Assembly (NCBI GenBank): GCA_002305925.1
Contig: DBRL01000013.1
Coordinates: forward strand, 54,540-118,539
Direction of reading: 5' to 3'
Length of the DNA stretch: 64,000 nucleotides
Origin: Candidatus Peregrinibacteria bacterium UBA1369
GTDB lineage: Bacteria; Patescibacteriota; Gracilibacteria; UBA1369
The position numbers were made by a program, and so were the translations under genes. Shown here piece by piece: positions 18,878-63,450 of this stretch; within the stretch, counting starts at the first letter, position 1, and each line of letters starts with the position of its first letter. Below the pieces are notes generated by a model. The model saw only the letters and a program-made list of their open reading frames with translations, did no database searches and was not told the origin of the DNA.

Positions 18878-19567
18878 ATGAAACCAATACGTTTTGATAT
18901 TGTCACCATCTTTCCAGACATTTTCAGCTCCTATTTCCAAGAAGGCATGATCAGAAAAGGACTGGAACAGAAAATTATTGAAATACACGTGCACAATCTG
19001 CGCGACTACACCAAAGACAAATGGGGAAAAGTCGACGACATACCCTACGGCGGTGGGGCAGGCATGGTTCTAACCCCTCAACCGCTCTACGATGCCATCA
19101 AAGCCCTACGCAAAGTCAACGCCGGTCCTGTAATTTACCTCAGTCCCAAAGGAGACATACTCACCCACACCAGAGCCCGCCGGCTCTCAATGGAACTGGA
19201 AAAACTTAAGCCTGGTCGCGGCAAGACGCGTGGAATAATCCTTGTCTGCGGCCGCTATGAGGGCATTGACCAGCGGGTCATCGACCTCTGCATCGACCGG
19301 GAAATATCGATCGGCAAATACATTCTCACCGGAGGAGAACTGGCAGCCATGGTACTGATCGACAGTATCTCCAGATTTTTCCCCGGATTACTGGGAGACC
19401 AAAGATCGCACCGGGAAGAGAGTTTTTCGCGAACTTTGGGAGGGAGGAAAGAATACCCCCACTATACCAAACCAAGAATCTTCCAAAAAAAAGCCGTACC
19501 GGAAATTCTGCTGAGCGGCCATCACGGTAAAATTGCCCAATGGCGAAAGTTACACACCAAAAAATAA
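18878..19567 (+). CDS. trmD: tRNA (guanine37-N1)-methyltransferase
   Basis: MKPIRFDIVTIFPDIF is the typical TrmD N-terminus. YGGGAGMVL, GRYEGIDQRV and ILTGGELAAMVLIDS are also present. An alternative upstream ATG lies at 18842. Confidence 0.9.
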   Translation: MKPIRFDIVTIFPDIFSSYFQEGMIRKGLEQKIIEIHVHNLRDYTKDKWGKVDDIPYGGGAGMVLTPQPLYDAIKALRKVNAGPVIYLSPKGDILTHTRARRLSMELEKLKPGRGKTRGIILVCGRYEGIDQRVIDLCIDREISIGKYILTGGELAAMVLIDSISRFFPGLLGDQRSHREESFSRTLGGRKEYPHYTKPRIFQKKAVPEILLSGHHGKIAQWRKLHTKK

Positions 19568-19583
19568 TTTCACCGCAAGCAAA

Positions 19584-22418
19584 ATGGAAAGCCAAAAAGC
19601 CTACAAATATCAAAATATTTTCGACACTTTCGATAGCAGTGAATTGGGTCTGGATAACAATGAAGCGACCTTTCGCCTCAAAAAATTCGGCCCCAACCAG
19701 CTGGCCGTCAAAAAAGGTAAACCTCTGATCCTGCGTTTTCTGGAAGAATTTGCCGACCCGATGATGCTGCTGCTCATTTTCGCTACCATCATAGCCTTCT
19801 TCTCGGGAGACCATACCGATGCCGCCATAATTTTGATAGTGGTGATGCTCAACGGGCTAATCAGTTTTGTCCAGAAATACAAAGCGGAAAAAGCCGTCGA
19901 GGCTCTAAAAAAAATGGTTTCTCCGCAAGCACGGGTACTGCGTCAGCGACAACAGGTATTGATTGACACCGCCAACATCGTTCCCGGCGACGTGATCATC
20001 ATCAATGAAGGAGACACCATCCCCGCCGACGCAATAGTTTTTGCCGCCAACGAACTACAAACCTCGGAAGCGATTTTAACCGGAGAATCATTCCCGGTGA
20101 AAAAAAACGCCTTTGACGTTATTGAAAAAGGCAATGTCACCACCGTCGAAAATATCGTCTTCACCGGAACCACGGTCGCGCGCGGCAACGCCAAAGCTCT
20201 GGTCTTCAAGACAGGCATGGACACCGAATTCGGCAAAATCGCCGATTTGACACAGGAAACAAAAAAAGACCGCACCCCACTAGAACAGGAAATTCACAAA
20301 ATTGGCATCTTTGCCGCACAGATTACCATTGTCATTATTGCCATCATTTTCGTCTTTGAGCTGCTGGTACATCAGCGTTCAATCGTCAACAACATTCTTT
20401 TCGCGGCCTCCATCGCAGTAGCAGCTGTGCCTGAAGGTCTACCCGCGGTAATCACCATCGCTCTGGCCTTGGGCGTACAAAAGCTTTCAAGAAAAAAAGC
20501 CATTATCCGCCAACTGTCTTCGGTAGAAACTCTGGGAGCGACTACCGTCATCTGCACCGACAAAACCGGCACCTTGACCAAAAACGAGATGACCGTCACC
20601 CAGGCACTCCTCGATGATTTCTATGTCAGTTTCGAGGGCGCCGGCTACGCGCCCGTCGGTAAATTTCGCGTCTACACCGCTGACGAACAAATTCACGATC
20701 TGGAAAGCGGCAAAATCACACCGGAATTCAACAAAAAGCACCCCAAAATATCGACGGCCCTGAGCTGGTTCGGCCTGACAGCGGAACTTTGCAACAACGC
20801 CAATCTGGAAATCAAAGACAATCAATACAAACTGCTGGGAGACCCTACGGAAGGTGGGTTGCTCTCCATGGCCAAAAAGATCTCTTCCAACCGCAACTCG
20901 GAAATACGTCAAAATCTGCAGGAAACTCTGGAACTTCCCTTCGATTCCGAACGCAAAATGATGTCAAAAATATATTTGGACCGTCAACACGGCAAATATT
21001 ATCTCTTTGCCAAAGGAGCGCCTGAACAAATTATCAAAAATTGCGACCAGCGACTTCACGGAGGCAGACTGGCCATTCTTACCAAATCGGTAAAGTCTGA
21101 GCTGCTTGAACATAACGAGAAATTCAACCAAGAAGCTCTGCGGACAATCGCCCTGGCCTATCGTGAAATGTCTGCACATGAAACGGAAAATCTGTTTAAA
21201 CTGAAAGAATTTGAGGAAAAAATAGCCTTCGCCGAGAAAAAAATGATCTTTATCGGCCTGGCCGGCCTTTCCGATCCGCCACGCGAGGAAGTAGCCGAAG
21301 CGGTACGATTGACCAAAATAGCCGGCATCAAGAGTTACATTGTTACGGGAGACCACGGCTTTACCACGGCAGCCATTGCGAAAAAAATCGGTCTGATCGA
21401 TCCCCAAAAGCCTTACGAGATAATTACGGGAGAAGATTTGGAAAAAATAGAAGACCAGACTCTGCTGGAAAAATTCAAACAGCGGGATTTGGACCTAATT
21501 TTTTCCCGCACCAAACCGGAACACAAATTACGCCTGGTATCTCTGCTGAAAGAGAACCGAGAAATCGTCGCCGTCACCGGTGATGGGGTCAATGACGCCC
21601 CGGCTCTCAAACGGGCAGACATCGGAGTGGCGATGGGAATATCGGGCTCGGACGTATCCAAGGAAGCTGCCAACATGGTTCTGCTGGACGACAGTTACAG
21701 CACCATCGTCACAGCCATTCGCGAAGGAAGAACGATTTACGCCAATCTGAAAAAATTCATCTTTTTCATCTTTTCCTGCAATATCGGTGAACTGTTTACC
21801 ATCTTTGTCAGCCTACTGATCGGGCTGGTTTCACCACTGACTGCCATCCTGATTCTTACGGTCAATCTGGCTACCGACCTTCTGCCAGCCCTGGCACTGG
21901 GCCTGGAACCGGCCGAAAAAGACATCATGGAAAAAGCCCCGCGCCGAACCGATGAAAAAATCATGAACCGCCGTTTCGTATACCGGGTATTGGCCACTGG
22001 ATCATTGATGGGCATCATTTTGCTGACCCAATACATTTACAAGCTTTACAGCAGCGGCTGGAGCTGGGGAGCGACAATACCCGAAAATGTACTGGTGGAA
22101 GCCAGCAGCCTGGTATTCCTAAGTATGGTACTGATACAGGTGGCCAACTCCTTCAACGCCAAAAGCGAGGATAAATCGATTTTTGCCGTCAATCCTTTCA
22201 ATAACCACAAGCTTATCTGGGCCAACCTTTCTTCCGTGCTTATGGCAATTGCCGTAGTCGAATTGCCTTTTTTACAGCAATACTTTGATACCGCGTCACT
22301 GGGGTGGCAGGATTGGCTGCTCATCCTGGCCGGCTGCCTTATTATTATTATCTTCATGGAACTGTTCAAAGTAATGACCAGACGCAAACAGCCCCCCCAA
22401 AAACAGATCCCAGCATGA
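19584..22418 (+). CDS. Cation-transporting P-type ATPase, P2 (Ca2+/Mg2+-like) subfamily
   Basis: LTGESFPV (TGES), PEGLPAV, the phosphorylation site CTDKTGTLT, and TGDGVNDAPALK. There are about 10 hydrophobic segments. The ATG at 19584 avoids overlap with trmD; the track start is 19533. Confidence 0.92.
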   Translation: MESQKAYKYQNIFDTFDSSELGLDNNEATFRLKKFGPNQLAVKKGKPLILRFLEEFADPMMLLLIFATIIAFFSGDHTDAAIILIVVMLNGLISFVQKYKAEKAVEALKKMVSPQARVLRQRQQVLIDTANIVPGDVIIINEGDTIPADAIVFAANELQTSEAILTGESFPVKKNAFDVIEKGNVTTVENIVFTGTTVARGNAKALVFKTGMDTEFGKIADLTQETKKDRTPLEQEIHKIGIFAAQITIVIIAIIFVFELLVHQRSIVNNILFAASIAVAAVPEGLPAVITIALALGVQKLSRKKAIIRQLSSVETLGATTVICTDKTGTLTKNEMTVTQALLDDFYVSFEGAGYAPVGKFRVYTADEQIHDLESGKITPEFNKKHPKISTALSWFGLTAELCNNANLEIKDNQYKLLGDPTEGGLLSMAKKISSNRNSEIRQNLQETLELPFDSERKMMSKIYLDRQHGKYYLFAKGAPEQIIKNCDQRLHGGRLAILTKSVKSELLEHNEKFNQEALRTIALAYREMSAHETENLFKLKEFEEKIAFAEKKMIFIGLAGLSDPPREEVAEAVRLTKIAGIKSYIVTGDHGFTTAAIAKKIGLIDPQKPYEIITGEDLEKIEDQTLLEKFKQRDLDLIFSRTKPEHKLRLVSLLKENREIVAVTGDGVNDAPALKRADIGVAMGISGSDVSKEAANMVLLDDSYSTIVTAIREGRTIYANLKKFIFFIFSCNIGELFTIFVSLLIGLVSPLTAILILTVNLATDLLPALALGLEPAEKDIMEKAPRRTDEKIMNRRFVYRVLATGSLMGIILLTQYIYKLYSSGWSWGATIPENVLVEASSLVFLSMVLIQVANSFNAKSEDKSIFAVNPFNNHKLIWANLSSVLMAIAVVELPFLQQYFDTASLGWQDWLLILAGCLIIIIFMELFKVMTRRKQPPQKQIPA

Positions 22419-28338: not shown

Positions 28339-28521
28339 ATGCCTCCCAAAAATCCACCCCAAAAAACCGGCAACCCGGAACTGACCACGCGCGACCGCCA
28401 AATCCTGGAACAGATCGGCTACCTGGCCATTCACCGCGCCAGTAAAAAAATCGTCACCGACCGCAAAAAACAATTTTTCAACCAACTGCAACAAGATGGC
28501 AAGGGAACCTCTCAAAATTGA
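28339..28521 (+). CDS. Hypothetical small protein (weakly supported)
   Basis: A 60-aa ORF from the ATG at 28339 (track ORF 28294 uses TTG). It overlaps the next ORF by 26 nt. No recognisable motifs. Confidence 0.25.
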   Translation: MPPKNPPQKTGNPELTTRDRQILEQIGYLAIHRASKKIVTDRKKQFFNQLQQDGKGTSQN

Positions 28522-29827
28522 ATTCATCAGCAGCAAACCCGCCGCGCCGGAGGAAAAGCCCGGAGCGGGGGTAGAAAAAACATCGGAATCCGCTCAAAAA
28601 CAACCTTCGCTGCAGGAAATCGCCCGCAAAGCCGCGGAACGTTTCACCCAGCCTGAAGAAAAAAGACGTTTTTTGATTGAACTGGCCAAAGAACTGCGCG
28701 CCAGAATCGACGAACTTTCCCCCGAACTGCGCACAAGATTTTACAATGGCAAAGAAGATTTGGATTTAAACAGCGTCACTGCCGTCTATGGCTTGCGCGA
28801 ACACCTGAGCGCGGAAATCACCCCCGAGGGCGGCCTGCGTGAAGCCGATGAAGACACCACCGCGAAAATACCGGGAGAATACCGCATCCCCGAGCGGCCT
28901 GCCGGCGCCAAAGGCGGCCAGAAGCTTCTCCGTGAATGGGGACTGAACCGCAACATGAACGCTTTCCAGGACCAGCTTGCCGACAACATCATCCGTGAAA
29001 TTGAGCGCGGCAACGTGCCGGATTCCTGCCGCAACATGCATACCATCACCATGCAGGGAGAAGACGGTACCAAAATCTCTTTCCGCACCTCGGCCGGCTA
29101 TCTGGCCGTCGGTTCAAACCAGGACCACGTCAGGGTGCCCCTTTCCGGATACATGGCCAAGCGCATCGCCGACCACTTCGGCTGGACCCTGCCCACGGCC
29201 GACATGGCCGCAGCCACCGACAGAGCGGCCGACCTGCAGTTGCGCATCGGCGGGGAAACGCACAATGACTATGATCTTGCCCACATGGCCGACCTGGAAT
29301 ACGCCCGCAAACACAACCAGCGCGCCCAGAAATCATTGCAACGCCATCTCAATCAGATCAACAAGAGAGCCGCCGAACAGGGACAGCCACCTCTCACCGC
29401 CAATGATTTGAGCAGACTGCTCATCCGTGGCGAGAAAAAGAACATTTTTATCGGACAGCGCTCCGACCAGGGCGGCATCGGCATCGGAGGACTGCTCGAC
29501 ACCAACGGCAACCCCATTCAGCCCTACCAATATCCCCACTCTAAAGAAACCGGCCCCAACGGTGAGACCGGCTATCATGGTGACTACTCGCAATCAATCG
29601 CCATCCAGGCCCCCAAAGTCACCATCGTCACCCCGGACGGCAAGAGTCACAGCGTACATCTCTACGAAGCCCTGCGCGACCCCAAATACGCCAAAATCCT
29701 CAACCCCAGCGAAGCCGGTAAGAACGATGGTGTCTTTATCGCTGAAAACAGCTATCAGCGACGCGGAAACTTTGACTCTCCCACTCCACGGCGGCGCGGC
29801 AGAAGGGCCCCTTCGCGAACAGTCTGA
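28496..29827 (+). CDS. Hypothetical protein, no recognised domain
   Basis: A 443-aa ORF with no signal peptide. The N-terminus is disordered and E/K/P-rich, and the C-terminus is basic (RRRGRRAPSRTV). The gene is locally GC-rich. It is the only long ORF here with a protein-like composition. Confidence 0.6.
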   Translation: MAREPLKIEFISSKPAAPEEKPGAGVEKTSESAQKQPSLQEIARKAAERFTQPEEKRRFLIELAKELRARIDELSPELRTRFYNGKEDLDLNSVTAVYGLREHLSAEITPEGGLREADEDTTAKIPGEYRIPERPAGAKGGQKLLREWGLNRNMNAFQDQLADNIIREIERGNVPDSCRNMHTITMQGEDGTKISFRTSAGYLAVGSNQDHVRVPLSGYMAKRIADHFGWTLPTADMAAATDRAADLQLRIGGETHNDYDLAHMADLEYARKHNQRAQKSLQRHLNQINKRAAEQGQPPLTANDLSRLLIRGEKKNIFIGQRSDQGGIGIGGLLDTNGNPIQPYQYPHSKETGPNGETGYHGDYSQSIAIQAPKVTIVTPDGKSHSVHLYEALRDPKYAKILNPSEAGKNDGVFIAENSYQRRGNFDSPTPRRRGRRAPSRTV

Positions 29828-29890: not shown

Positions 29891-32269
29891 ATGATTTCCT
29901 TCCAACGCATCCTTGGAGGAGCCTTGGTCGTGCAGTTGCTACTGACAACCACGGCTTTCGGCGCCACCAATCCATCGTACCTGGCTCCGGCCAACAGTTT
30001 CGTCTACCTGGAAAGCAACACCGCCCAGGAAAACCCCCTCAAGGGTCAACTGGCCGACCTGCTGCGCCAGGCTGGCGAAGACATGGAAAATCAGGCCACA
30101 CTCAATGCTATCGCCGATAACATCGACCAGACCACCATCGCTATCAGCACCGCCTTTCACCAGGACGGCAGTGACATCTATTTCCTCTCAATGGCCCTGG
30201 ACGAGGACGACTTTCAAACCATTATCGACGAATTAACGGACAAAGACCTGATCATCAAAGACCTGGGCCAGAACAACATCATCTACCTGACCGGAGACGA
30301 CTTTTATTTCACCCACAAGGACGGTAATCTGCTGGCCTCCAATCGGGAAGGCATGGTCTCCGACCTTTTGCTGGTCCACAATCCCGACTCCATCGGCAAA
30401 ACAGCCGACTGGCAATTTCTCAACGGCAAAAGCAGTGGACGTGAATTCCTGCGCGGACTGATCAATTTCCGCCAAATGCCGGACAGTCTGGCCGAAGAAG
30501 AAAACCTCCCCTTCCAACTGACCGATTTAATTGAGTCCGAGAGCTTTGCCATCGAACAGACCAGCAGCGGCTTCAAAGGAATCGTTTCCGTCAAGAGCGG
30601 CTCCATGATGGAAAAATTATCGACCAGACCAACTTTTGTTCCTGAATTATACAAAAAGCTGCGCGCGGAAGGCGTTCTGTTTCATAGTGAATCCTTTGAT
30701 TTGGCCAGCGGCATCGTCGACACCATCGAACTGTTCTCGGCCATGTCCGGCCAGGCAACCGAAAGCGATCTCGAAGATTTCTACGCCGCCTTCGAAGAGG
30801 AAATTCTGGCAGCAACCGGACTGAATCTGGAGAAGCAAATCACTCCCCTGCTGCGCAACCGGTTTTCTCTCAGCATACACGATGAATCAGAACTGCAAAT
30901 GGCCCCTGCATTCACGCTGCTCAGCGATGTCAAAGGAAATGAAACCCTGGCCCGGGAAACCCTGGCCGCCATGCATTCCCAGCTGCAACAAAACATGCAG
31001 GACACCTTTGACAGATTTTACGATCAGGAATTGGCCTATCGCGAAGAATTAAAACAATATTTCGACGAAGATCCGTCCTATACTCCAACCACCCTGCCGG
31101 ACCGCCAAACCCTGAACCAGCTTTTTTTCCAGCAGTCTTCCCAAACCGTCAACGGCACAGTGTTCAACCAGCTGACCTTTGACCCGGAGGCCAACATGTA
31201 TTTCTATCAGGACGATTACCAGCCCAACCCGAAAACGGTTTTCACACTGTCCAGCGGCGTTACATCCGACGGTCTGCTGATTTTAACCACCAGCAAGAAC
31301 CTCAACACGCTTTTGTCGGGCAACGGCGGTATTGGCCAGGACAGCGAATGGCAAAAAAGCTATCAGGGGGGAAGCATGCTGGAAATAAATTTCCTTCAGC
31401 TGGACAATCTGGGCAGCTATATCGAAAAATTGGCCATCACAATAGACCCCGAATATGGACCGCAGGAGGTTGAGCCAATCCTGGATTTCCTCAGTCCGCT
31501 ACACAGTCTCACCGTAAAAAGCAGCAAAGAAAACGATTATTTCCTGGGACATTTCTCTCTGAACATGGACTTGTCAGTAACGGAAAATCTGATCGAATCA
31601 ATCTTTGAGGCAATGCAAAATTATTCCAACAGCTACGGTGAATACGATTATTATAACTGGGACGAATTTAACCGCTTTCAATTGACCGAACCAGCGCTCT
31701 TCCAAAAATTCAACTTCAGCGACGTCGATGAAAAAGCCTGGTACGCCCCCTATGTCTATCACATGGCCAATCTGGGCATCATGAAAGGTTATGGCAACAA
31801 TGAATTCCGTCCGGCCCAAAACATCACCAGAGCAGAATTCATCAAAACCATCATCACCGCGTACCAAAAACGCTATGGACAGGAAGAACCAAACAATATC
31901 ATGCCAGTAAAAGGATTTTCCGACGTACTGGCCAATGACTGGTTTTCTCCCTATGTCAATCAGGCGCTCAGTCTGGAACTGATTACCGGCTACAATGATG
32001 GCACCTTCCGTCCGAATCAGACCATTACGCGCGCCGAGGCTACCGCCATCCTGGTCCGTACCTGGGAAAACGACCATTATTTCTACGAAATGGCACTGGA
32101 TGAACCCTTTGACGACGTCAATCCGACAGACTGGTTTCAAGCGGCCATAGCCAAAGCCTATCAACTCAATCTGGTCAGTGGAAAAACACCCACCACCTTT
32201 GCTCCCAGCGCCCCGCTCAGCCGAGCCGAAACAGCCACCCTGATCAGCCGCTATTTGGAGTGGTACTAA
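29891..32269 (+). CDS. Secreted protein with three C-terminal S-layer homology (SLH) domains
   Basis: The signal peptide is MISFQRILGGALVVQLLLTTTAFGA. The three SLH repeats are FSDVDEKAWYAPYVYHMANLGIMKGYGNNEFRP...ITRAEF, FSDVLANDWFSPYVNQALSLELITGYNDGTFRPNQTITRAEA and FDDVNPTDWFQAAIAKAYQLNLVSGK...LSRAETA. Confidence 0.8.
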   Translation: MISFQRILGGALVVQLLLTTTAFGATNPSYLAPANSFVYLESNTAQENPLKGQLADLLRQAGEDMENQATLNAIADNIDQTTIAISTAFHQDGSDIYFLSMALDEDDFQTIIDELTDKDLIIKDLGQNNIIYLTGDDFYFTHKDGNLLASNREGMVSDLLLVHNPDSIGKTADWQFLNGKSSGREFLRGLINFRQMPDSLAEEENLPFQLTDLIESESFAIEQTSSGFKGIVSVKSGSMMEKLSTRPTFVPELYKKLRAEGVLFHSESFDLASGIVDTIELFSAMSGQATESDLEDFYAAFEEEILAATGLNLEKQITPLLRNRFSLSIHDESELQMAPAFTLLSDVKGNETLARETLAAMHSQLQQNMQDTFDRFYDQELAYREELKQYFDEDPSYTPTTLPDRQTLNQLFFQQSSQTVNGTVFNQLTFDPEANMYFYQDDYQPNPKTVFTLSSGVTSDGLLILTTSKNLNTLLSGNGGIGQDSEWQKSYQGGSMLEINFLQLDNLGSYIEKLAITIDPEYGPQEVEPILDFLSPLHSLTVKSSKENDYFLGHFSLNMDLSVTENLIESIFEAMQNYSNSYGEYDYYNWDEFNRFQLTEPALFQKFNFSDVDEKAWYAPYVYHMANLGIMKGYGNNEFRPAQNITRAEFIKTIITAYQKRYGQEEPNNIMPVKGFSDVLANDWFSPYVNQALSLELITGYNDGTFRPNQTITRAEATAILVRTWENDHYFYEMALDEPFDDVNPTDWFQAAIAKAYQLNLVSGKTPTTFAPSAPLSRAETATLISRYLEWY

Positions 32270-39017: not shown

Positions 39018-40265
39018 CTATTTAATCAGCCGCAATGCGCTACGACGGGATTGCTCACGCTGGCTTTCGATTTGCCGCTCCATCCGTTTCCATTGGTTAA
39101 AATATTCTTCCTGCCGACCATGAGCCTGAACTTCAATCTGATTTGCCGCTAGAATACGCGTACGCAAAAGCAGCTCACTCTCTTCAACCAAACTGCTTTC
39201 CAGAGCCGACCTGGCCAGCGAAAGCAGCCTCTCCGGGAAAAACTCATCCAGTTGATTTTGTTGATAGGTAATGGACAAACCGTCGGGACCGGGAATTTCA
39301 GTGCTACCCGGATCGTTCCGCCCGCCTTCGCGCAAAAAATTTGGCACAAACACAGCTTCACTGCAAGCCCTGTAAAGATAGTTTTTTTTCATGGCCTGAA
39401 AATTTGGCAATTGATCAAAATCATCCGTCTGGCCATTTCGGTTGCCCAAAAGCCGTACGGCCCTGCGCACGGATTCCGCCAAGAGAAGATGATAGGGCGG
39501 ATAAATATAATTGCGATCAAGCAGTTTTTCCAAACGTCCCCTCTCCCATAGAGCTTTGCCATTGGAGCCAAACTCCTTTTTCAACTGGGCCAGTGAATTG
39601 AGAACGTTTCCCAGGGACAAGGTCAAATTTGTAACCATGCGCTGATTCACCTGAACCGGTGAACCAATCATTTCCAGAGAAAAGGAGAGATCAGCAAGCA
39701 TCGCCTCGAGATTGCCATGCAGCTGTCTCAACAAAAGACACAGATTGATCAGCAGCCCCCAATACAAAGAGCATTGTTCCGCCAGGAAAGTTCCCATCAA
39801 TTGATCATCGTGATACAGGTCCGGAACACTTTGCTCCCAGGACTGCAAATCGGCGCGCATCCTGGCAACAATTTGCATGGCGGCACCACGCATGGCCGCA
39901 AGATTATTACCGTGCAAATCGACACCATACTTTTCGTCCAGTCTGCGAACGGTCTGCATTTGTTTCCTGACCGATACACCGGACTGATCTACGCTCTCGC
40001 GAAAAAGACTTGCGCCCGCTTCCCCCAAACCAGCCTGCTCAATTTCCTTGATCCGCCAGAGCAAAGTCACTGCATCGGCCAGTGGCGCCCTGACCAAATC
40101 CCTATAGTTCTCACAAAGCGGATGACGCAGCATCCTGCCAATTTGCAAAAACAGTTTGGCGGCCAGATCAAATGGTATTTCATCACGTCCATCCAGGACT
40201 TTCTGAAAATCCTGCCTGGCCTCCAGCTGTCCACCGACAATGGTTTGCGTTCTAATCCTTTCCAT
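39018..40265 (-). CDS. Hypothetical protein, helical, no recognised domain
   Basis: A 415-aa ORF 45 nt downstream of uvrB on the same strand. Its composition is protein-like, whereas the opposing 191-aa ORF looks like an antisense artefact. Confidence 0.6.
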   Translation of the reverse strand: MERIRTQTIVGGQLEARQDFQKVLDGRDEIPFDLAAKLFLQIGRMLRHPLCENYRDLVRAPLADAVTLLWRIKEIEQAGLGEAGASLFRESVDQSGVSVRKQMQTVRRLDEKYGVDLHGNNLAAMRGAAMQIVARMRADLQSWEQSVPDLYHDDQLMGTFLAEQCSLYWGLLINLCLLLRQLHGNLEAMLADLSFSLEMIGSPVQVNQRMVTNLTLSLGNVLNSLAQLKKEFGSNGKALWERGRLEKLLDRNYIYPPYHLLLAESVRRAVRLLGNRNGQTDDFDQLPNFQAMKKNYLYRACSEAVFVPNFLREGGRNDPGSTEIPGPDGLSITYQQNQLDEFFPERLLSLARSALESSLVEESELLLRTRILAANQIEVQAHGRQEEYFNQWKRMERQIESQREQSRRSALRLIK

Positions 40266-42305: not shown

Positions 42306-42722
42306 ATTTGAATTGCTACGGGATTATAAGATTTATAGACCATTTTGACCGCTCATCCAAGGGCATTTGGGCAGTCCGACGGCCTGGAACGTTGACAACG
42401 CAAAAATACATTGGAAAACCCTATTTAGACTTTACTAATTCAAGAAATAGTGTATAACTATGCCGGATTCCTCCCCCAACGGGGACAATGTGATCGTTGA
42501 CAATTGAGAAAAACACGCCGGTTTGACCAAGACCGGCACTAACAACCAAGATTACAGGCAAGGAGGTGATGCCCGATGCTAAACCAGTGGTGGAGCCTCC
42601 TGGGCGTCACCACAACCAGGGATTTCGTGCGGCGGGCCGGCAACGGCAACCCCGCACCACAACGTCCGCGCTGGCCATCCACGGCGGCGCGCAACCAGGA
42701 ACGGAGAGGAGAGAGATAGATC

Positions 42723-45700
42723 ATGGGAAAGCAACAGCGCAACTGGATGGCGGCGCACCTGATTACGGTGCTTGTCGCCATCATCGCAGTCGTGGGTGCT
42801 TCGGCACTGCTCGGCTGCGATTCGAACCCACCGGGGTCTGCCTGTCTCGACGAAGGCAACCCCTTCTGCTCGAACTACGTCCCTCCGGGGAGCGGTGGTT
42901 CGGGCAACAACACGAACACCGGCGGCACGGGCAACAGCGGAACCGGCGGCAACACCACGCCGCCCGTCAACTGCGGCGCCCTGCCGAACTTCAACTGCTT
43001 CGGCGAGTGCGTCGTCCTGACCACCGACGAAGCAAACTGCGGCTCCTGCGGCCGCGAATGTGGCAGCGGCCAGTCCTGCGTGGACGGCTACTGCACCTGG
43101 AACACGCCGCCAGACCAGTGCGTCCAGTCAAGCGAAGCCTGCGACGGCATCGACAACGACTGTGACTTGGCCATCGATGAGGAGTTCAATCTCTTCACCG
43201 ACGAAGCGAACTGCGGCACCTGCGGACGAGCCTGCGGCAGCGGCCAGTCCTGCGTCAATGGTCACTGCACCTGGGACGAGCCTCAAAACGGCTGCGTCTC
43301 ATCGACAGAGACCTGCAACGGCGTGGACGATGACTGCGACACCGCCATCGACGAGCCGTTCAATCTGCTGGCAGACACTGCAAACTGCGGTGTCTGCGGC
43401 AACGTCTGCGGGACGGGACAGCACTGCTCCAACGGGCACTGCGCGCTGGACGTCCCCGACGACCAGTGCGTTCCGAGCGCCGAGGTGTGCGACAGCGTCG
43501 ACAACGACTGCGACGGTACCATCGATGACGGGTTCAACCTGCTCACCGACGCACAGAACTGCGGCATGTGCGGCCACGCCTGCGACAGCCTGCAGTCCTG
43601 CGTCAGCGGTCACTGTGCCTGGGACACCCCGATCGACGAATGCGTACAGGCGGCCGAGGTCTGCGACAACGCGGACAACGACTGCGACGGCGCCATCGAC
43701 GAGACCACCAACCTGCTCTCAGACCCGCAGAACTGCGGCATGTGCGGGCGGGCCTGTGACACCGGAGCTCTCTGCCTCAACGCGATCTGCTACTTCTCCA
43801 CTCCGGTGGACGAGTGCGTGCAGCAACCGACAGAGCTCTGCAACAGCCGCGACGACAACTGCAACGGCTGGGTGGACGAGGGCTTCAACCTCTTCACCGA
43901 CCCTGCCAACTGCGGCATGTGCGGCCGCGACTGTAGCGCAGGAGCTGTCTGTGACTCCGGTCACTGCCAGCTGATCACCCCGATTCTGAACTGCACGCCT
44001 GCCCCTGAGGTGTGCGACTACACCGACAACGACTGCGACGGCGTGGTGGACGAGCTCATCAATCTGCAGACGGACGAGGCCAACTGTGGCGTCTGCGGAC
44101 TGGCCTGCGCGGCTGAGCAGGTCTGTGACACTGGCCACTGCCAGTGGATCACTCCTCCCCTCAACTGCACTCCTGCCAATGAGGTGTGCAACGGTGTCGA
44201 CGACGACTGCGACGGGGTGATCGATGATGGCTACTCGCTGCTCAATGATCCCCTCAACTGCGGCGCCTGCGGCCGCGCCTGCGGTGCCAACCAGCACTGC
44301 GAGAACGGGGCCTGCGCGCTGGACGTCCCCGACGACCAGTGCGTTCCGAGCGCCGAGGTGTGCGACAGCGTCGACAACAACTGCAACCTGTCAATCGATG
44401 AAGGCATCAATCTCTCCACGGACAATGCCAACTGCGGCGTCTGCGGAAGGATCTGCCCGGCAGGCCAGGTCTGCCAGTCAGGTGCCTGCTCCTGGATCGT
44501 GCCGCCCTCGGGCTGCACGCCATCCAACGAGCTCTGCAACGGTGTCGACGACGACTGTGACGGCGCCATCGACGACGGCTTCGTGCTCACCAACGACGAA
44601 GCCAACTGTGGCGTCTGCGGCCACGCCTGCGGAGCCAACCAGGTCTGTGACAACGGTCACTGTGCCTGGATCACCCCACCCCCCGGCTGCGCGCCTGCCC
44701 CTGAGACGTGCAACGGCGTCGACGACGACTGCGATGGGATTCTGGACGACGGCTACAACCTGTCCAACGACCCGCTCAACTGCGGACTCTGCGGATTTGT
44801 CTGCGCCGCCGGACAATACTGCCTCAACGGCCACTGCGCCTGGGAGTCTCCCGTCAACGTCTGCATGCCTGCCAATGAGGTGTGCAACAACGTCGACGAC
44901 AACTGCAACGGCCTGATCGACGAGGGCATCAACCTCGCCACCGATCCGGCCAACTGCGGCGCCTGCGGCCGGGTTTGCGCGCCCGGTCAGTCCTGCCAGA
45001 CAGGCAAGTGCATCTGGAACGTACCCCAGAACGGCTGCGTAACAGTCGCGGAGATCTGCGACAACATCGACAACGACTGCGACCAGCTGATCGACGAGGG
45101 CTTTGACCTGCAGAACGACGCCCTCAATTGCGGCAAGTGCGGAAGGACCTGCGCGGCCAACCAGCACTGCCAGGACGGCACCTGCGCCTGGAACGTGCCA
45201 CAGGACGGGTGCGTACCGGCAGTCGAAATCTGCGACAACGCGGACAACGACTGTGATGGTCTGATCGACGAGGGAATCGCCTTGCTCTCCGATTCCCAGA
45301 ACTGCGGCACCTGCGGCCACGTCTGCGGAGCGGGACAAATCTGCCAGAACGGCTACTGCAGTTGGCTGATCCCCGTCTCCACCTGCGGACCGCCGTCGTC
45401 GGAGGTGTGCGACAACACCGACAACGACTGCGACGGCTTCATCGACGAGGGGTATGACCTGCTCCTCGACGAGATCAACTGCGGCCACTGCGGGAACGCC
45501 TGCGCGGCCGGGCAATACTGCTCCAACGGGGCATGCGCCTGGATCGTGCCGGTTTCCTCCTGCGTACCGGCCCCGGAGACCTGCGACAACACCGACAACG
45601 ATTGTAATCAGCTGATCGACAACGGCTTCAACCTGTCGATCGACGAGAGCAACTGCGGTCAGTGCGGTACGGCCTGCGGAGCCAACCAGAGCTGCTGGAA

Positions 45701-46244
45701 CGGACACTGCGCCTGGAACACCCCGGTGAACGGCTGCACACCGGTGGCAGAGCTGTGCAACAACATCGATGACGACTGCGACGGCGCCATCGATGAGAAC
45801 TTCAATCTGTCGTCCGACCAGCTCAACTGCGGCATCTGTGGCCGGGTCTGCGCGGCAGGACAGTTCTGCCACGGCGGCAAGTGCCAGTGGTCGACGCCGC
45901 CTGCGGGCTGCACTCCCGCTGCCGAGACCTGCAACTACTCGGACGACGACTGCGACGGGATCATCGACGACGGATTCAACCTGTTGTCGAACAACTCCCA
46001 TTGCGGAGCCTGCAACAAGGCCTGCGCCGCCGGGCAATTCTGCCAGAACGCGCACTGCACCTGGGTCATTCCGCAATCCAGCTGCGTGCCGGCAGCAGAG
46101 AGCTGCAACCAGATCGACGACGATTGCGACAGCGCCATCGACGAGAACTGGAACTTCATGTCTGACGACCTGCACTGCGGAAACTGTTGGACGGTCTGTC
46201 CTGGCACGCAATACTGCCAGAACGGACAATGCAGGCTTCCATGA
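42723..46244 (+). CDS. Cysteine-rich tandem-repeat lipoprotein (one half-module plus 18 full 58-aa modules), function unknown
   Basis: 1173 aa. A GGAGAGGAGAG purine-rich site lies upstream. The signal peptide plus lipobox is ...GASALLGC, with Cys32. A G/S/N/T linker follows, then regular C-x6-C-D-x2-DNDCDG-x-IDEG...NCG-x-CG-x2-C-x5-C-x4-C modules. Confidence 0.85.
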   Translation: MGKQQRNWMAAHLITVLVAIIAVVGASALLGCDSNPPGSACLDEGNPFCSNYVPPGSGGSGNNTNTGGTGNSGTGGNTTPPVNCGALPNFNCFGECVVLTTDEANCGSCGRECGSGQSCVDGYCTWNTPPDQCVQSSEACDGIDNDCDLAIDEEFNLFTDEANCGTCGRACGSGQSCVNGHCTWDEPQNGCVSSTETCNGVDDDCDTAIDEPFNLLADTANCGVCGNVCGTGQHCSNGHCALDVPDDQCVPSAEVCDSVDNDCDGTIDDGFNLLTDAQNCGMCGHACDSLQSCVSGHCAWDTPIDECVQAAEVCDNADNDCDGAIDETTNLLSDPQNCGMCGRACDTGALCLNAICYFSTPVDECVQQPTELCNSRDDNCNGWVDEGFNLFTDPANCGMCGRDCSAGAVCDSGHCQLITPILNCTPAPEVCDYTDNDCDGVVDELINLQTDEANCGVCGLACAAEQVCDTGHCQWITPPLNCTPANEVCNGVDDDCDGVIDDGYSLLNDPLNCGACGRACGANQHCENGACALDVPDDQCVPSAEVCDSVDNNCNLSIDEGINLSTDNANCGVCGRICPAGQVCQSGACSWIVPPSGCTPSNELCNGVDDDCDGAIDDGFVLTNDEANCGVCGHACGANQVCDNGHCAWITPPPGCAPAPETCNGVDDDCDGILDDGYNLSNDPLNCGLCGFVCAAGQYCLNGHCAWESPVNVCMPANEVCNNVDDNCNGLIDEGINLATDPANCGACGRVCAPGQSCQTGKCIWNVPQNGCVTVAEICDNIDNDCDQLIDEGFDLQNDALNCGKCGRTCAANQHCQDGTCAWNVPQDGCVPAVEICDNADNDCDGLIDEGIALLSDSQNCGTCGHVCGAGQICQNGYCSWLIPVSTCGPPSSEVCDNTDNDCDGFIDEGYDLLLDEINCGHCGNACAAGQYCSNGACAWIVPVSSCVPAPETCDNTDNDCNQLIDNGFNLSIDESNCGQCGTACGANQSCWNGHCAWNTPVNGCTPVAELCNNIDDDCDGAIDENFNLSSDQLNCGICGRVCAAGQFCHGGKCQWSTPPAGCTPAAETCNYSDDDCDGIIDDGFNLLSNNSHCGACNKACAAGQFCQNAHCTWVIPQSSCVPAAESCNQIDDDCDSAIDENWNFMSDDLHCGNCWTVCPGTQYCQNGQCRLP
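43119..46241 (+). repeat. In-frame tandem array of 18 modules with a 174-nt (twice 177-nt) period
   Basis: The NCGxCG codons recur at 43035, 43209, 43383, 43557, 43731, 43908, 44082, 44256, 44430, 44604, 44778, 44952, 45126, 45300, 45477, 45651, 45825, 45999 and 46173. Positions were counted by hand. Confidence 0.9.
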
Positions 46245-46438
46245 CGGTAGCCCCCCCAAGGTTGACGCAGCAACCAAGGGGACATCACCAGCCGACCAAC
46301 GCAGTGGTCAGCTGAACACGGACAGAGGTAAGAAGTCGCAGTTCTTCCTCCGTCCACCTCACCCCGAAACGTCCTTCCCTGCTTGACTACACATCAGCAA
46401 GGAAGGGCCTGACCGTCGATGACGGCTTGCCCGGAAAC

Positions 46439-46469
46439 GGGGAGGGCGGATGTGTAATCCGCCCTCCCC
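46439..46469. repeat. Perfect 13-bp inverted repeat (GGGGAGGGCGGAT-GTGTA-ATCCGCCCTCCCC)
   Basis: Read directly from the sequence. There is no U-tract, so the function is unknown. Confidence 0.5.
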
Positions 46470-46498
46470 GACCGGATCAGGCTGGCATCGCAAGAACC

Positions 46499-46540
46499 GA
46501 AAAAGGCCGCCCCAGTGCATCGTGCACAGGGCGGCCTTTT
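46499..46540. terminator. Probable bidirectional rho-independent terminator between convergent genes
   Basis: GAAAAAGGCCGCCC...GGGCGGCCTTTTC forms a 12-bp perfect stem. It is flanked by an A-run on one side and a T-run on the other, so it is usable on both strands. Confidence 0.6.
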
Positions 46541-46578
46541 CGCTGTCCAAATTTAAGACAGACTTGTTTTTAATTCAA

Positions 46579-47889
46579 TCAGATCTTCCCCAGATTGTGC
46601 AGCTTGTAGAGCACCTGGGCCACCTCACGCCGTGAAGTGAAATTGGCCGGCTTCAAAGTGCTACCGGTAAAGAGACTGTTGTCTTTGGAATACTTGGCAT
46701 AATCGGCAAACCAGTCGGTGGAATGCACATCGGTGTAAGAAGCCCCCGTCGGCATGATTTCACCCAAATTGCGAAGAATTATGGCCAAAAACTCAGCCCG
46801 ATTAACTGAACGGGCCGGACGGAAATAGCCCGCATCCGCTCCCGCCTCATAACCGGTTACCACAGCCAAGGCCTTGGCCCGGCAAATATACTGATAGGCC
46901 CAGTCAGCAGCAGTCACGTCGGGGAAAGGGCTCTGACCGGCGCAATAATCGGCGGAACCACTGAAGTTCCCGAAGGCTTCCAGGGCGATCTTGGCAATTT
47001 GATCACGCTGCAAAAGTCCGGCAGGATCAAAGGTGCCATCGGGATTGCCAGTCATCGCGCCGATACTTTTTACATAACTGATAGCGTCACAATCGGCATC
47101 GGAAGCCGCCAGATCGGAAAAACCGGCACACTTGGCCACAATCTCCTGCGAAACGGTAAAAGTGGGAATCGAAACGGCCGAACTGAGATTCCCCCAGAAG
47201 TCCGCCACCCTGATTTTACAGTTGCTGTAAGTCCCGGGCTCCAGCGCCATAAAAGTAATTGTATTGTCACCCGCCACAACCTGACTGGTAGTACTCAGAC
47301 AGGCACCCTGATAACTGACATAGCCGGCCTCATCGGTTTTGATCACCACGCTGGGAGTGGTATCCGTAGTCGGTGAATCCACCCCGCTGACCAGAGAGAT
47401 AGTCGGCGCTACCACATCTATCAATAAAGGATCGATAGGATCAATTATTATTCCAGCCTTCACCTCAAAGGTCGGTACCTCCAGCTTGGCTGAGGTGAGA
47501 TCAAGGGCGTTTTTCACCGCCACCGTACAATTGCTGTGTATCCCGACATCAAGAGTATCGAAAACAACCAAATTGTCTCCGGCAATCGCTGTGGTAGTGG
47601 AACTGACACAGTCCCCTCCATAAATAATGTCTCCAGCCTGTGAAGAATAAAAAGTAAATTCCGGGGTTTTATCATAAGTCTCAACGGGCACAGGTTTAAC
47701 CACATGCAGGGAAGGAATCAGATTTGGAAAAACCGCATCCGGATCTATCGGATCAGGCAACGTGGGCGGCAAAAGAGCCTGCGCTGGCAAAACAACAAAC
47801 AAAGTCAGCAAACCCGAGAGCAAAAAACGGGAAAATATTCTCCAGCTAAAAATTAACATAAGCAATAGAATTAAAAATTTAAACTTCAA
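46579..47889 (-). CDS. Secreted protein with two tandem Ig-like domains and three C-terminal SLH domains
   Basis: 436 aa, TTG start, hydrophobic N-terminus. There are two homologous segments of about 75 aa (...GDCVSSTTTAIAGDNLVVFDTLDVGIHSNCTVAV... / ...GACLSTTSQVVAGDNTITFMALEPGTYSNCKIRV...). The SLH repeats are FSDLAASDADCDAISYVKSIGAMTGNPDGTF, FPDVTAADWAYQYICRAKALAVVTGY and YTDVHSTDWFADYAKYS. Confidence 0.8.
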   Translation of the reverse strand: MKFKFLILLLMLIFSWRIFSRFLLSGLLTLFVVLPAQALLPPTLPDPIDPDAVFPNLIPSLHVVKPVPVETYDKTPEFTFYSSQAGDIIYGGDCVSSTTTAIAGDNLVVFDTLDVGIHSNCTVAVKNALDLTSAKLEVPTFEVKAGIIIDPIDPLLIDVVAPTISLVSGVDSPTTDTTPSVVIKTDEAGYVSYQGACLSTTSQVVAGDNTITFMALEPGTYSNCKIRVADFWGNLSSAVSIPTFTVSQEIVAKCAGFSDLAASDADCDAISYVKSIGAMTGNPDGTFDPAGLLQRDQIAKIALEAFGNFSGSADYCAGQSPFPDVTAADWAYQYICRAKALAVVTGYEAGADAGYFRPARSVNRAEFLAIILRNLGEIMPTGASYTDVHSTDWFADYAKYSKDNSLFTGSTLKPANFTSRREVAQVLYKLHNLGKI

Positions 47890-61821: not shown

Positions 61822-63450
61822 CTACCCCACAGGCCCACCGGTCTCTTCCTGACAATTCAACTGACGAACCTCAGCATAATCATAAATCATCTGGGAAGGT
61901 TCATAATTGCCAAAAGACATTGTCCGCGCCGTCAGATCAAAAACAGCAAATCCTCTGCCATTTCCGCCCTCCATGGAGGTCAGCACGGGATCAGCGCACA
62001 TGTCTTCGGCCGAATCAATATCCTTGAAAGCCAAAACCAGACTACCGGAAATCCCCTCACCATCCGGCAGCCAGGCCACCAGACTGGCCTGCGGCAAATA
62101 ATTTCCGATTGCGCCAAGCTGATCAAATTCCCCGGCCAGATAAGTTGCCTTCCACAATTCGCGCGGTTGGCAAGTCCCCACCGTAGGACAGACATAAATC
62201 CGCAACGTGACGGCGGAAAGATCGTCCTCGTAATCGGAGGTCAGAAAATACTCCTGGTCTCCCACATAGTTGATCAGAACCCCCCATTCCATCACCTCCG
62301 CTGCAGATATAACCTGATCGACGTCCTCATAACGCCACCATTCACCGGGTGCCAGCGGGGCGGGATTTTCCATCGGCTCACCACCATACACATCGCCATC
62401 CTCGTCGGCCCACTCTTCCCCCCCTTCATGTCCGGTGAAATACCAGTCCATGATGTCAATATCCCTGACCGTCTCCCCCACCTTCACCGGTAGGCTGACC
62501 AGCTCATGAGAAGTACAATTCTCAACATCCATACCACAGACGACAAATTCAGTATAACCGCCGAAACTGCTGCCGACATAGGCCATCACATTATAGGAAC
62601 CAGCCGGTACCGGCAATTTGTAGCCCACGCCATAGAGATAATTCTTCGACTGAATCTGCTGATAAGTACAATATTGGGCGCCGCTGTTGGATTCGGTGGC
62701 GCAAACCAGCATATTTTGCGGAATAAATTCACTGGGATAGCTGAGACTCCCCTCCAGATAGCCCTTGGAAACGGCCAAACCGGCATAGGTCTGATAGGCT
62801 CCGTAATTATTGCCATCGCCCAGACGATAAATCATTTCCGCCATTTCGCCGCGGGAGATTTTCTGGTCAAAACTGTTGATCGTGTTTGGAATCGCTTTCT
62901 TGGCACTTAGCACATCGACATAAGGCTTATACCATTCTTTCGCATCGGGACCGGCAGTCTGATAGCCCATGGCGTTGACGATGATTTTCGCCGCCTCTGC
63001 GAAATTAATCTCCTGGGCAGGCTTAAAAGTACCATCCGGGTAACCATCGATGATCATGGCGACCTTGGCCTCGCGCAGATAGGGCACATACCAGGCACCG
63101 TTCTCCACATCAGAAAAAGGCACGCCAATCAAACTGTAAATGTCATAACCGCTTGGATCTTGGGCGGGATTATACCCTTCACCGGTAGAACCGATGATTA
63201 TTTTGGTGAATTCGGCACGGTTGATGGTCTGATAGGGGCGATAGGTGCCATCCGGATAACCGGAAATAATGCCCTTGTCCTTCAGATAACTAAGGGCGGC
63301 AAAAAAACCGTCCTCCTCACCCACATCGGCAAAAACCATTCCATCGTCCGGCCATGACTGTACCGTTTCATTGGCTCCGGCCACATTGCCGAAAGACATG
63401 GTGAACAGCATGAAGACGAATAACAACCTGGCAAAAAACATTTTCCACAT
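61822..63450 (-). CDS. Secreted protein with three N-terminal SLH domains
   Basis: 542 aa with a signal peptide ending ...FGNVAGA. The SLH repeats are FADVGEEDGFFAALSYLKDKGIISGYPDGTYRP...INRAEF, FSDVENGAWYVPYLREAKVAMIIDGYPDGTFKP and KEWYKPYVDVLSAKKAI. The C-terminal half is unknown. Confidence 0.8.
   Translation of the reverse strand: MWKMFFARLLFVFMLFTMSFGNVAGANETVQSWPDDGMVFADVGEEDGFFAALSYLKDKGIISGYPDGTYRPYQTINRAEFTKIIIGSTGEGYNPAQDPSGYDIYSLIGVPFSDVENGAWYVPYLREAKVAMIIDGYPDGTFKPAQEINFAEAAKIIVNAMGYQTAGPDAKEWYKPYVDVLSAKKAIPNTINSFDQKISRGEMAEMIYRLGDGNNYGAYQTYAGLAVSKGYLEGSLSYPSEFIPQNMLVCATESNSGAQYCTYQQIQSKNYLYGVGYKLPVPAGSYNVMAYVGSSFGGYTEFVVCGMDVENCTSHELVSLPVKVGETVRDIDIMDWYFTGHEGGEEWADEDGDVYGGEPMENPAPLAPGEWWRYEDVDQVISAAEVMEWGVLINYVGDQEYFLTSDYEDDLSAVTLRIYVCPTVGTCQPRELWKATYLAGEFDQLGAIGNYLPQASLVAWLPDGEGISGSLVLAFKDIDSAEDMCADPVLTSMEGGNGRGFAVFDLTARTMSFGNYEPSQMIYDYAEVRQLNCQEETGGPVG

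Follow-up and report, generated by a model that had tools for sequence, protein, structure and literature searches.

A periodic cysteine-rich lipoprotein gene at a conserved locus of Candidatus Peribacteria: a candidate lipid-anchored surface fibre

What role could a bacterium with a small genome have for a protein in which 13.2% of the residues are cysteine? The question is raised by an uninterrupted open reading frame (ORF) at positions 42723..46244 (+ strand) of a 64,000-nt stretch of contig DBRL01000013.1, from Candidatus Peregrinibacteria bacterium UBA1369, a member of the candidate phyla radiation (CPR). Here, the window means this whole stretch and W its own copy of the cysteine-rich gene, with L numbers denoting the other loci and P numbers the homologous proteins used for comparison.

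CPR bacteria are generally regarded as living in attachment to other cells, and the molecules by which they make contact are largely unknown. The cysteine-rich gene is a well-delimited candidate for such a molecule, being a single, conserved, monocistronic locus that is predicted to encode a lipid-anchored, strain-variable fibre. We lean slightly towards reading its product as a surface fibre that is lipid-anchored, stabilised by disulfides and Ca2+, and probably an adhesin. An earlier note on this DNA, made from the letters alone, had proposed a surface-tethered rod or adhesin stabilised by disulfides or metal. The lipoprotein signal and the modular cysteine and acidic architecture behind that proposal are real, and it is still the best reading, the rod and its adhesion being properties that we continue to infer. 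New in this analysis are a DxDxDG-like loop with an Asp/Asn swap, a confident single-module model without a solved relative, mosaic alleles between near-identical strains, a gene-specific GC content, and a conserved 5' leader with a Shine-Dalgarno-like element. Of these, the base composition that departs from that of the genome, the mosaic alleles, and the conserved leader are of most interest.

Anatomy of the gene and protein

The ORF encodes 1173 aa with no internal stop, and it is intact in all full-length orthologs. Its product contains 155 Cys, 131 Asp, 46 Glu, 128 Gly, and 116 Asn together with 5 Lys and 12 Arg; it is extremely acidic, with Lys and Arg near absent and about 160 net negative charges. 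The earlier estimate of roughly 150 cysteines, or about 13% of residues, was close. The parts of the coding region are as follows:

42723..42818, + strand: signal peptide and lipobox, aa 1-32 (...ALLG-C32), from a PROSITE-type lipobox pattern; G-C-D-S-N-P-P is kept in orthologs.
42819..42971, + strand: linker, aa 33-83, from the translation; a conserved DSNPPGSACL(D/E)xGNP(F/W)CSNYVPPGSGG segment (2 Cys), then a low-complexity G/S/T/N-rich tract.
42972..43118, + strand: capping module, aa 84-132, with 8 Cys, a Stig1-like second half, no acidic loop, and a shorter Cys span.
43119..46241, + strand: 18 tandem modules of 58 aa (59 in modules 5 and 14), with a MopE-type acidic loop and NCGxCGxxC...C....C; 18 matches each to PF11617 and PF04885.
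43608..46207, + strand: strain-variable part, modules 4-18, 82-99% identical to L001.

The lipoprotein signal that the earlier note placed at Cys32 is borne out by a PS51257-type regular expression, whose match ends at that residue; the expression asks for K/R among the first 7 residues, an h-region free of charge, [AGS]-C, and a Cys no later than residue 35. The same expression matches the 1173/1174-aa alleles P0001, P0122, and P0124, as well as P0002, P0003, L023, and P0005; the allele P0123 misses it solely because its called ORF begins upstream. The signal peptide is of the Sec type and lacks a twin arginine. Beyond it, the N-terminal linker segment is conserved in P0001-P0003 and L023.

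The modules are strikingly regular. The motif [NH]CGxC occurs 19 times, at a spacing of 58 aa (174 nt) in 16 intervals and 59 aa (177 nt) in the other 2. The earlier note had this spacing right and read NCGxCG at all 19 positions, whereas that exact form is found in 17, the last two being HCGACN and HCGNCW. When the 18 full modules of the window are aligned, the cysteines at positions 1, 8, 15, 32, 35, 39, 45, and 50 are invariant, as the note had it, and so are E6, D12, D20, and G33. What had been taken for a degenerate half-module ahead of them turns out to be a complete eight-cysteine capping unit that lacks the acidic loop.

Counting the capping unit as a module, the cysteines add up without remainder: the 155 comprise 1 in the lipobox, 2 in the linker (C41 and C49), and 19 x 8 in the modules, and orthologs with 171 and 179 Cys obey the same arithmetic of 1 + 2 + 8 per module. 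Therefore, all cysteines except the one to be lipidated could pair. At the DNA level, Tandem Repeats Finder detects 2 repeat copies only, with 76% identity, and the mean amino acid identity between modules is 52%. With the DNA repeats so diverged, the regularity resides in the protein architecture and not in recent duplication.

The module family and its relatives

Profile searches place the module in catalogued families. The MopE-type motif that the earlier note had named is present: Pfam PF11617 (Cu-binding_MopE, putative metal-binding motif) matches 18 stretches with 184.8 bits against a cut-off of 27. PF04885 (Stig1) matches 18 stretches with 208 bits in total against 24.1, its best stretch being residues 91-126 of the capping module, which cover profile positions 49-84 of 85, i.e., the C-terminal Cys pattern only. 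The NCBIfam subfamily model NF041328 (MXAN_6577-like cysteine-rich protein), with a profile length of 145 positions or about 2.5 modules, matches 13 stretches with 343 bits against 100. When a profile of the 18 modules was run against 1.84 billion proteins, 20,854 cluster representatives were retrieved at E <= 0.001 and 1,067 at E <= 1e-30.

The module is already catalogued and widespread, and the family members have no demonstrated function; a literature search on MXAN_6577 found no paper, and none of the families matched has a known function. The earlier note's statement that this module architecture has no assigned function is true of the function, whereas the architecture itself is on record as PF11617 plus PF04885 and as NF041328. 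The module occurs in more than 20,000 protein clusters, none with a solved structure or tested function, and the structure of two or three modules with an analysis of Ca2+ and disulfides would annotate a very large family.

The nearest comparison is with MopE-related and MXAN_6577-like proteins, mainly from Myxococcota. These share with the window protein the composite C-x6-C-[DN]-x2-D-[ND]-D-C-D-G-x-[IV]-D-E ... NCGxCGxxC ... C-x4-C, as well as an Asp/Asn swap at module positions 9 and 13. Composite modules number 416 in 124 retrieved proteins, 138 of them belonging to the Peribacteria ortholog group, and a version with a slightly longer loop is common in the retrieved MopE-related proteins of Myxococcota, Falkowbacteria, and others. 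In those relatives, the modules span 53-60 residues and are accompanied by extra domains (lamin-tail, VWA, FGE-sulfatase, and MYXO-CTERM parts), none of which is in the window protein. In contrast, the modules here are the most compact, with a 50-residue Cys span and a strict 58-aa period; the identity is only about 30%, and the host is a small-genome CPR bacterium.

The names of the two Pfam families call for some care. The second half of each window module matches the profile named for plant STIG1; in the best-scoring stretch, what is shared is a Cys spacing and not the whole plant domain, and a link to pollen-pistil signalling is not implied. With MopE of Methylococcus capsulatus, the copper-binding surface protein that gave PF11617 its name, the window protein has in common, by Pfam definition, a short acidic Cys-containing motif. 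It has no similarity to any solved chain, the crystallised MopE* domain included. The copper site of MopE*, formed by His and a modified Trp, has no conserved counterpart in the window modules: across 80 modules, H49 is conserved in 62% and W52 in 75%, and no His or Met is invariant. The "Cu-binding" label should not be transferred to the window protein.

The earlier note had also called such a protein unexpected in a CPR genome, a view that is not supported, as large Cys-rich extracellular proteins of Peribacteria were reported in 2016 (PMC4736985). In Ca. Peribacter riflensis, Cys makes up 1.67% of the proteome, and twenty large proteins have 2-11% Cys, the highest value being 11.4%. Most of these have signal peptides and some are annotated as lipoproteins, strain variation was noted, a weak similarity to Cys-rich repeat proteins of Myxococcus was described, and a role in rigidity or attachment was proposed; the genome also has at least four lgt genes, lspA, and dsbB (PMC4736985). 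As far as names, lengths, and the published description allow a comparison, these proteins have in common with the window protein the host class, large size, export signal, and high Cys content. The window protein is richer in Cys (13.2%) and perfectly periodic, and it is encoded where, in P. riflensis, genes for small hypothetical proteins adjoin uvrB. It is thus a newcomer, unusually regular and Cys-rich, to a family that is on record but uncharacterised, and its lineage had been noted for such proteins before.

The acidic loop and the predicted module structure

The acidic loop occupies module positions 12-21 with the sequence D-[ND]-D-C-D-G-x-I-D-E. In 80 ortholog modules, D12 and D20 are conserved in 100%, position 14 is D in 85% and N in 15%, position 16 is D in 81% and N in 19%, and G17, I19, and E/D21 are kept in 69%, 88%, and 88%, respectively; all eight module cysteines are invariant in 80/80. 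The loop fits D-x-[DN]-x-[DN]-G, with position +8 hydrophobic and an acidic residue close by, which defines the DxDxDG type. This calcium-loop pattern is familiar from EF-hand-like loops, thrombospondin type 3 repeats, and Excalibur domains.

Positions 9 and 13 carry one Asp and one Asn, in either arrangement (CDxxDNDC or CNxxDDDC), in 94/94 ortholog modules, and the same swap is found in 1976/2095 motifs of distant homologs. A double switch can be seen directly between orthologs, with module 3 reading CDSVDNDC in the window and CNNVDDDC in P0002. This is real covariation, and it fits one site that is shared by the two side chains and whose charge is fixed.

A single-module AlphaFold model built with 138 diverse modules has a mean confidence score (pLDDT) of 91.3 and is almost all coil, with one beta-hairpin at 43-52, which is as expected if the module is organised by an ion and disulfides. 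As to which cysteines would pair, a single homologous module (in P0113) loses C8 and C35 together, and such joint losses are too few to assign pairing. We favour an organisation in which four disulfides and a single hard cation hold each module together and the modules are repeated as a stiff acidic fibre, as the conserved positions and the model suggest.

There is a functional analogy to thrombospondin type 3 repeats and fibrillin-type calcium-binding EGF arrays, which form stiff extracellular rods through disulfides and Ca2+ bound on DxDxDG-like Asp/Asn loops. The likeness is one of small tandem modules with little secondary structure, the window module being likewise modelled as coil and hairpin; it does not extend to sequence or fold in PDB comparisons, the Cys pattern differs, and the window protein is bacterial and lipid-anchored by prediction.

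A conserved locus in Peribacteria

A syntenic ortholog with 63% identity lies in L004, a GTDB genome of an uncultured Candidatus Peribacteria bacterium, a class that belongs to Peregrinibacteriota; it is through this ortholog that we assign the host to Peribacteria. The conserved order runs DinG-like helicase, LemA, DUF2207, hypothetical protein, and uvrB, then the cysteine-rich gene, then an SLH protein, DUF4112, and further on an ABC transporter. It is seen in L001 (a Copenhagen sewage assembly, protein 92% identical), in L002 (a JGI metagenome), and in L004 (here a metagenome-assembled genome, MAG), and the downstream, SLH-side neighbours alone are present in L003 (a Logan assembly). A full-length, intact ortholog is found on a further JGI contig, L023. 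In all, we find the arrangement at six further loci, which derive from no fewer than five separate samples or genome assemblies. The linkage to uvrB and the SLH gene, which the earlier note had wanted checked, is seen in other assemblies, the position between these two genes being held in L001, L002, L004, and L036; the gene and its neighbours are therefore physically linked, and a chimeric assembly is not the explanation.

Orthologs have 18, 20, or 21 full modules. The modules are largely positionally orthologous across species, modules 5 and 6 being the best kept at 80-84% against about 63% overall. In the more distant L036, where uvrB is 77% identical, the positional homolog P0005 is a 2039-residue lipoprotein with 41 MopE motifs and another spacer. 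Since L036 shares both the position and the promoter-like block described below, the locus appears to have been inherited rather than independently inserted.

The window encodes three SLH-domain proteins within its 64 kb, at 29891-32269, 46579-47889 (the gene next to the cysteine-rich gene), and 61822-63450, which suggests that this CPR host has a wall or S-layer system anchored through SLH domains.

Strain variation and base composition

Between W and L001, most 100-nt windows of the flanks show an identity of 98-100%, and no difference occurs at positions 43008-43607. From 43608 to 46207, the identity falls to 82-99%, with most 100-nt windows at 82-95%, in a sharp-edged block, and 100% identity resumes directly past the stop codon. 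For this pair of strains, the synonymous divergence (dS) is 0.20 in the cysteine-rich gene and 0.015-0.044 in neighbouring genes. The ratio of nonsynonymous to synonymous divergence (dN/dS) of the cysteine-rich gene is 0.23-0.27 (0.23 for W vs. L001), which indicates purifying selection. Five alleles of the 90% cluster, including P0001, P0122, and P0123, differ in a mosaic fashion, in tracts of one to three modules. The pattern suggests that recombination or the import of alleles is frequent while selection is purifying overall, and mosaicism of this kind is as expected of exposed surface proteins, in which it is common, under diversifying pressure.

The base composition sets the gene apart as well. 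Its GC content is 0.638 and its GC content at third codon positions (GC3) is 0.84, compared with a GC3 of 0.53-0.68 in neighbouring genes; encoded with the codon usage of the neighbours, the same amino acids would give a predicted GC content of only 0.556. The orthologs of L001-L004 and L023 have a gene GC content of 0.62-0.64 and a GC3 of 0.79-0.84 between flanks with a GC content of 0.46-0.53. In L036, with a genome GC content of about 0.38 and a flank GC3 of 0.28-0.39, the positional homolog still reaches 0.629 and a GC3 of 0.73. The whole unit (42500-46550 in the window and 8001-14120 in L036) is at about 63% GC in genomes of 38-52% GC. Because the synonymous sites of the flanking genes are saturated between lineages and the gene is nevertheless GC-rich, the bias is maintained and is not the fading signal of an import.

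Three simple explanations of the bias were rejected. Accuracy-driven codon choice fails as invariant and variable module positions do not differ in GC3 or in their C-ending Asp/Asn codons, a general expression-linked codon bias fails as the genes for EF-Tu and ribosomal proteins have a GC3 of about 0.6, and gene conversion between repeats cannot be the sole cause as the non-repeat N-terminal codons and both untranslated regions (UTRs) are GC-rich too. We consider three candidate causes: a recombination hot spot with GC-biased gene conversion, selection acting on the mRNA, and repeated transfer. A GC content that is specific to the gene, in genomes of 38% to 52% GC, makes it feasible to test biased gene conversion against selection in bacteria.

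A GC-rich island was also seen elsewhere. In a Candidatus Falkowbacteria MAG (L037, 2145-10653), a MopE-related gene and three genes upstream of it stand out as an 8.5-kb island, with 57-65% GC where the genome has about 39%, and one of the upstream genes encodes a protein with zero Cys.

Proposed role and alternative explanations

We propose the following mechanism. The protein would be exported by the Sec pathway, after which Cys32 would be lipidated and the signal peptide removed, leaving the chain tethered on the outer face of the cytoplasmic membrane. A flexible G/S/T/N linker would lead to the one capping module and then to the 18 tandem 58-aa modules. Each module would be a small knot, almost without secondary structure, held by four disulfides and one cation, most likely Ca2+, seated in the DxDxDG-type acidic loop (D12-[ND]-D-C-D-G-x-I-D20-E). 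The array would make up an elongated and strongly acidic fibre with a probable length of tens of nanometres, which could span the wall and S-layer and act as an adhesin or contact fibre for surfaces or partner cells. The gene would be expressed as a monocistronic unit from its own conserved promoter, with a structured leader that perhaps stabilises the mRNA and a conserved terminator.

Several results weigh against this reading. A four-module AlphaFold model made with 15 window-derived rows reached a pLDDT of only 52.7, too poor to support a rod geometry. A sequence search of the PDB with the whole protein matched no chain at E <= 1, and three module profiles at E <= 10 gave chance matches to ferredoxins and toxins only. 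Foldseek with the single-module model against PDB and BFVD found nothing below E = 0.5, the overlaps being 20-residue hairpins of hirustasin, of ADAM/ADAMTS Cys-rich domains, and of TNFR-type repeats. With no solved structural relative, the Ca2+ assignment leans on a motif resemblance to DxDxDG loops, thrombospondin type 3 repeats, and Excalibur. No partner-binding domain was detected in the cysteine-rich protein, and adhesion is a guess from location and variability. Many Peribacteria inhabit anoxic water, where disulfide formation is less certain, and no lgt, lspA, or dsb genes turned up among the window genes scanned, in scans that did not cover every ORF.

The same lipobox and rigid-looking repeat array would also suit an envelope strut, i.e., a spacer with its lipid in the cytoplasmic membrane and a rigid rod spanning the envelope, which would tie the membrane to the wall or S-layer and fix the distance between them without being an adhesin. 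An SLH-domain protein gene is always the neighbour, L036 included despite its distance, three SLH proteins are encoded in the window, and the module number, which varies by lineage (18-21, and 41 MopE motifs in P0005), could tune the length. However, the SLH gene is convergent with a terminator between, so that the two are not co-transcribed, the gene order is conserved region-wide, so that adjacency is not specific, and alleles so strongly mosaic between near-identical strains are a feature of exposed proteins more than of internal struts; we consider a strut unlikely. We find it quite improbable that the protein handles metals, whether its Cys and acidic residues were to bind Cu, Zn, Fe, or Cd for extracellular capture, storage, or detoxification or, in a variant of the idea, it were a polyanionic sponge for cations. 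The PF11617 matches with their copper-binding name, the CxxC in NCGxCGxxC with its weak profile similarity to ferredoxin CxxCxxC segments (E 0.09-0.2), and the 13% Cys and net charge would agree with such a role. Nevertheless, the protein resembles no solved chain and hence not copper-binding MopE*, the module lacks an invariant His or Met, and the Cys count, lipobox Cys aside, is exactly even, which suits disulfides. The invariant non-Cys candidates for ligands are carboxylates, which prefer Ca2+ or Mg2+, and a Sec-type signal without a twin arginine makes a pre-assembled Fe-S cofactor unlikely.

The composition of the gene, together with nearest non-orthologous relatives that are mostly from Myxococcota and the GC-rich island around the Falkowbacteria homolog, could also suggest foreign DNA without a settled role in this host, either recently acquired from a high-GC donor, a myxobacterium for instance, or brought in by chimeric assembly. 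Against this stand the recurrence of the locus in separate samples and in lineages whose uvrB is only 77-84% identical, the promoter block kept even in a genome of 38% GC, the saturation of the flanking synonymous sites around a gene that is still GC-rich, and a dN/dS that speaks for purifying selection, and we give the idea hardly any credence. An ancient transfer into the ancestor of the clade is possible. To return to the fibre, a bolder and rather doubtful extension would make the locus a long-lived recombination hot spot of Peribacteria, encoding a strain-specific contact fibre that decides the partner or surface, with its GC content held by biased gene conversion or mRNA selection and not by recent transfer. 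If true, bacteria would offer here an unusually clear example of one gene that has kept a base composition independent of the rest of its genome over deep time.

The transcription unit

The regions on either side of the coding sequence contain the following features:

42431..42458, + strand: promoter-like block, TTTACT, a 16-nt spacer, and TATAAC, conserved in W, L001, L002, and L004.
42562..42613, + strand: leader stem 1, in which the Shine-Dalgarno-like GGAGGTGATGCC (42562-42573) is predicted by alifold to pair with GGCGTCACC (42603-42611) over 9 bp.
42669..42691, + strand: leader stem 2, CGCTGGCCATCCACGGCGGCGCG, conserved in five loci; an alifold hairpin with one one-sided change.
46245..46500, + strand: long GC-rich 3' UTR (about 255 nt), GC 0.58-0.61, with conserved blocks in W, L002, L004, and L023.
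46501..46545, no strand assigned: intrinsic terminator, AAAAAGGCCGCCCC...GGGGCGGCCTTTT, between the convergent cysteine-rich and SLH genes, conserved in four lineages.

The block at 42431..42458 is a putative promoter on the strength of its conservation. Its common form is TTTAC(T/A)AAT...GTGTATAACTAT, and it is found 5' of the L036 positional homolog, in the genome of 38% GC, as TTTACAAAT..GTGTATAACTAT. A simple promoter/terminator scanner called neither this block nor the terminator; the consensus-based search missed the promoter because its second hexamer ends in C. At the other end of the unit, the terminator is shared with the convergent SLH gene, and the sequence of its inner stem differs among the four lineages. 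With the downstream SLH gene convergent, the cysteine-rich gene is monocistronic.

The leader of about 260 nt, whose 5' end is predicted at about 42465, has two conserved predicted hairpins. The arms of stem 1 are invariant in five loci (W, L001, L002, L004, and L023) whose proteins are about 63% identical, with a U.G to U-A change in L023. The downstream arm sits within the invariant block GGCGTCACCAC (42603-42613). The hairpin contains GGAGGTGAT, which is invariant and forms a perfect Shine-Dalgarno-like sequence some 150 nt ahead of the start codon. A 1-nt indel in the stem 2 block and a 3-nt indel further upstream mean that the leader holds no conserved reading frame. Rfam gave no match on the leader at the gathering or a relaxed threshold, and the fold of the single leader sequence is not significant (z = -1.0). 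The Shine-Dalgarno-like element resembles the STAB-SD element, which stabilises the cry3A mRNA by binding the 30S subunit (PMC4113751); by this analogy it may stabilise the mRNA here, which we take as a lead only.

An upstream ORF of 48 codons (42576-42719) lies in the frame of the main gene, with its TAG one codon ahead of the ATG. The frame stays open into the gene in the allele P0123 and in L023, and indels break it in L002 and L004. The conservation is therefore at the nucleotide level, and a real peptide or a longer start of the main protein was ruled out.

Other genes of the window

About 20 kb away, at 19533-22418, the window encodes a P-type ATPase. In NCBIfam it comes closest to the Ca2+-transporting PMR1 and SERCA types, with scores under the equivalog cut-offs, and it could bear on a calcium-dependent envelope. 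The gene at 39018-40265 (- strand) encodes a 415-aa protein without a family match, which is 99.8% identical to its counterpart in L001 and 27% identical to the syntenic one in L002; with neighbours that are 65-84% identical in L002, it is a second fast-evolving gene of the region. Just upstream of a protein with three SLH domains, an ORF of 443 aa (28496-29827) has no Pfam or NCBIfam match and a locally elevated GC content of 0.56-0.57.

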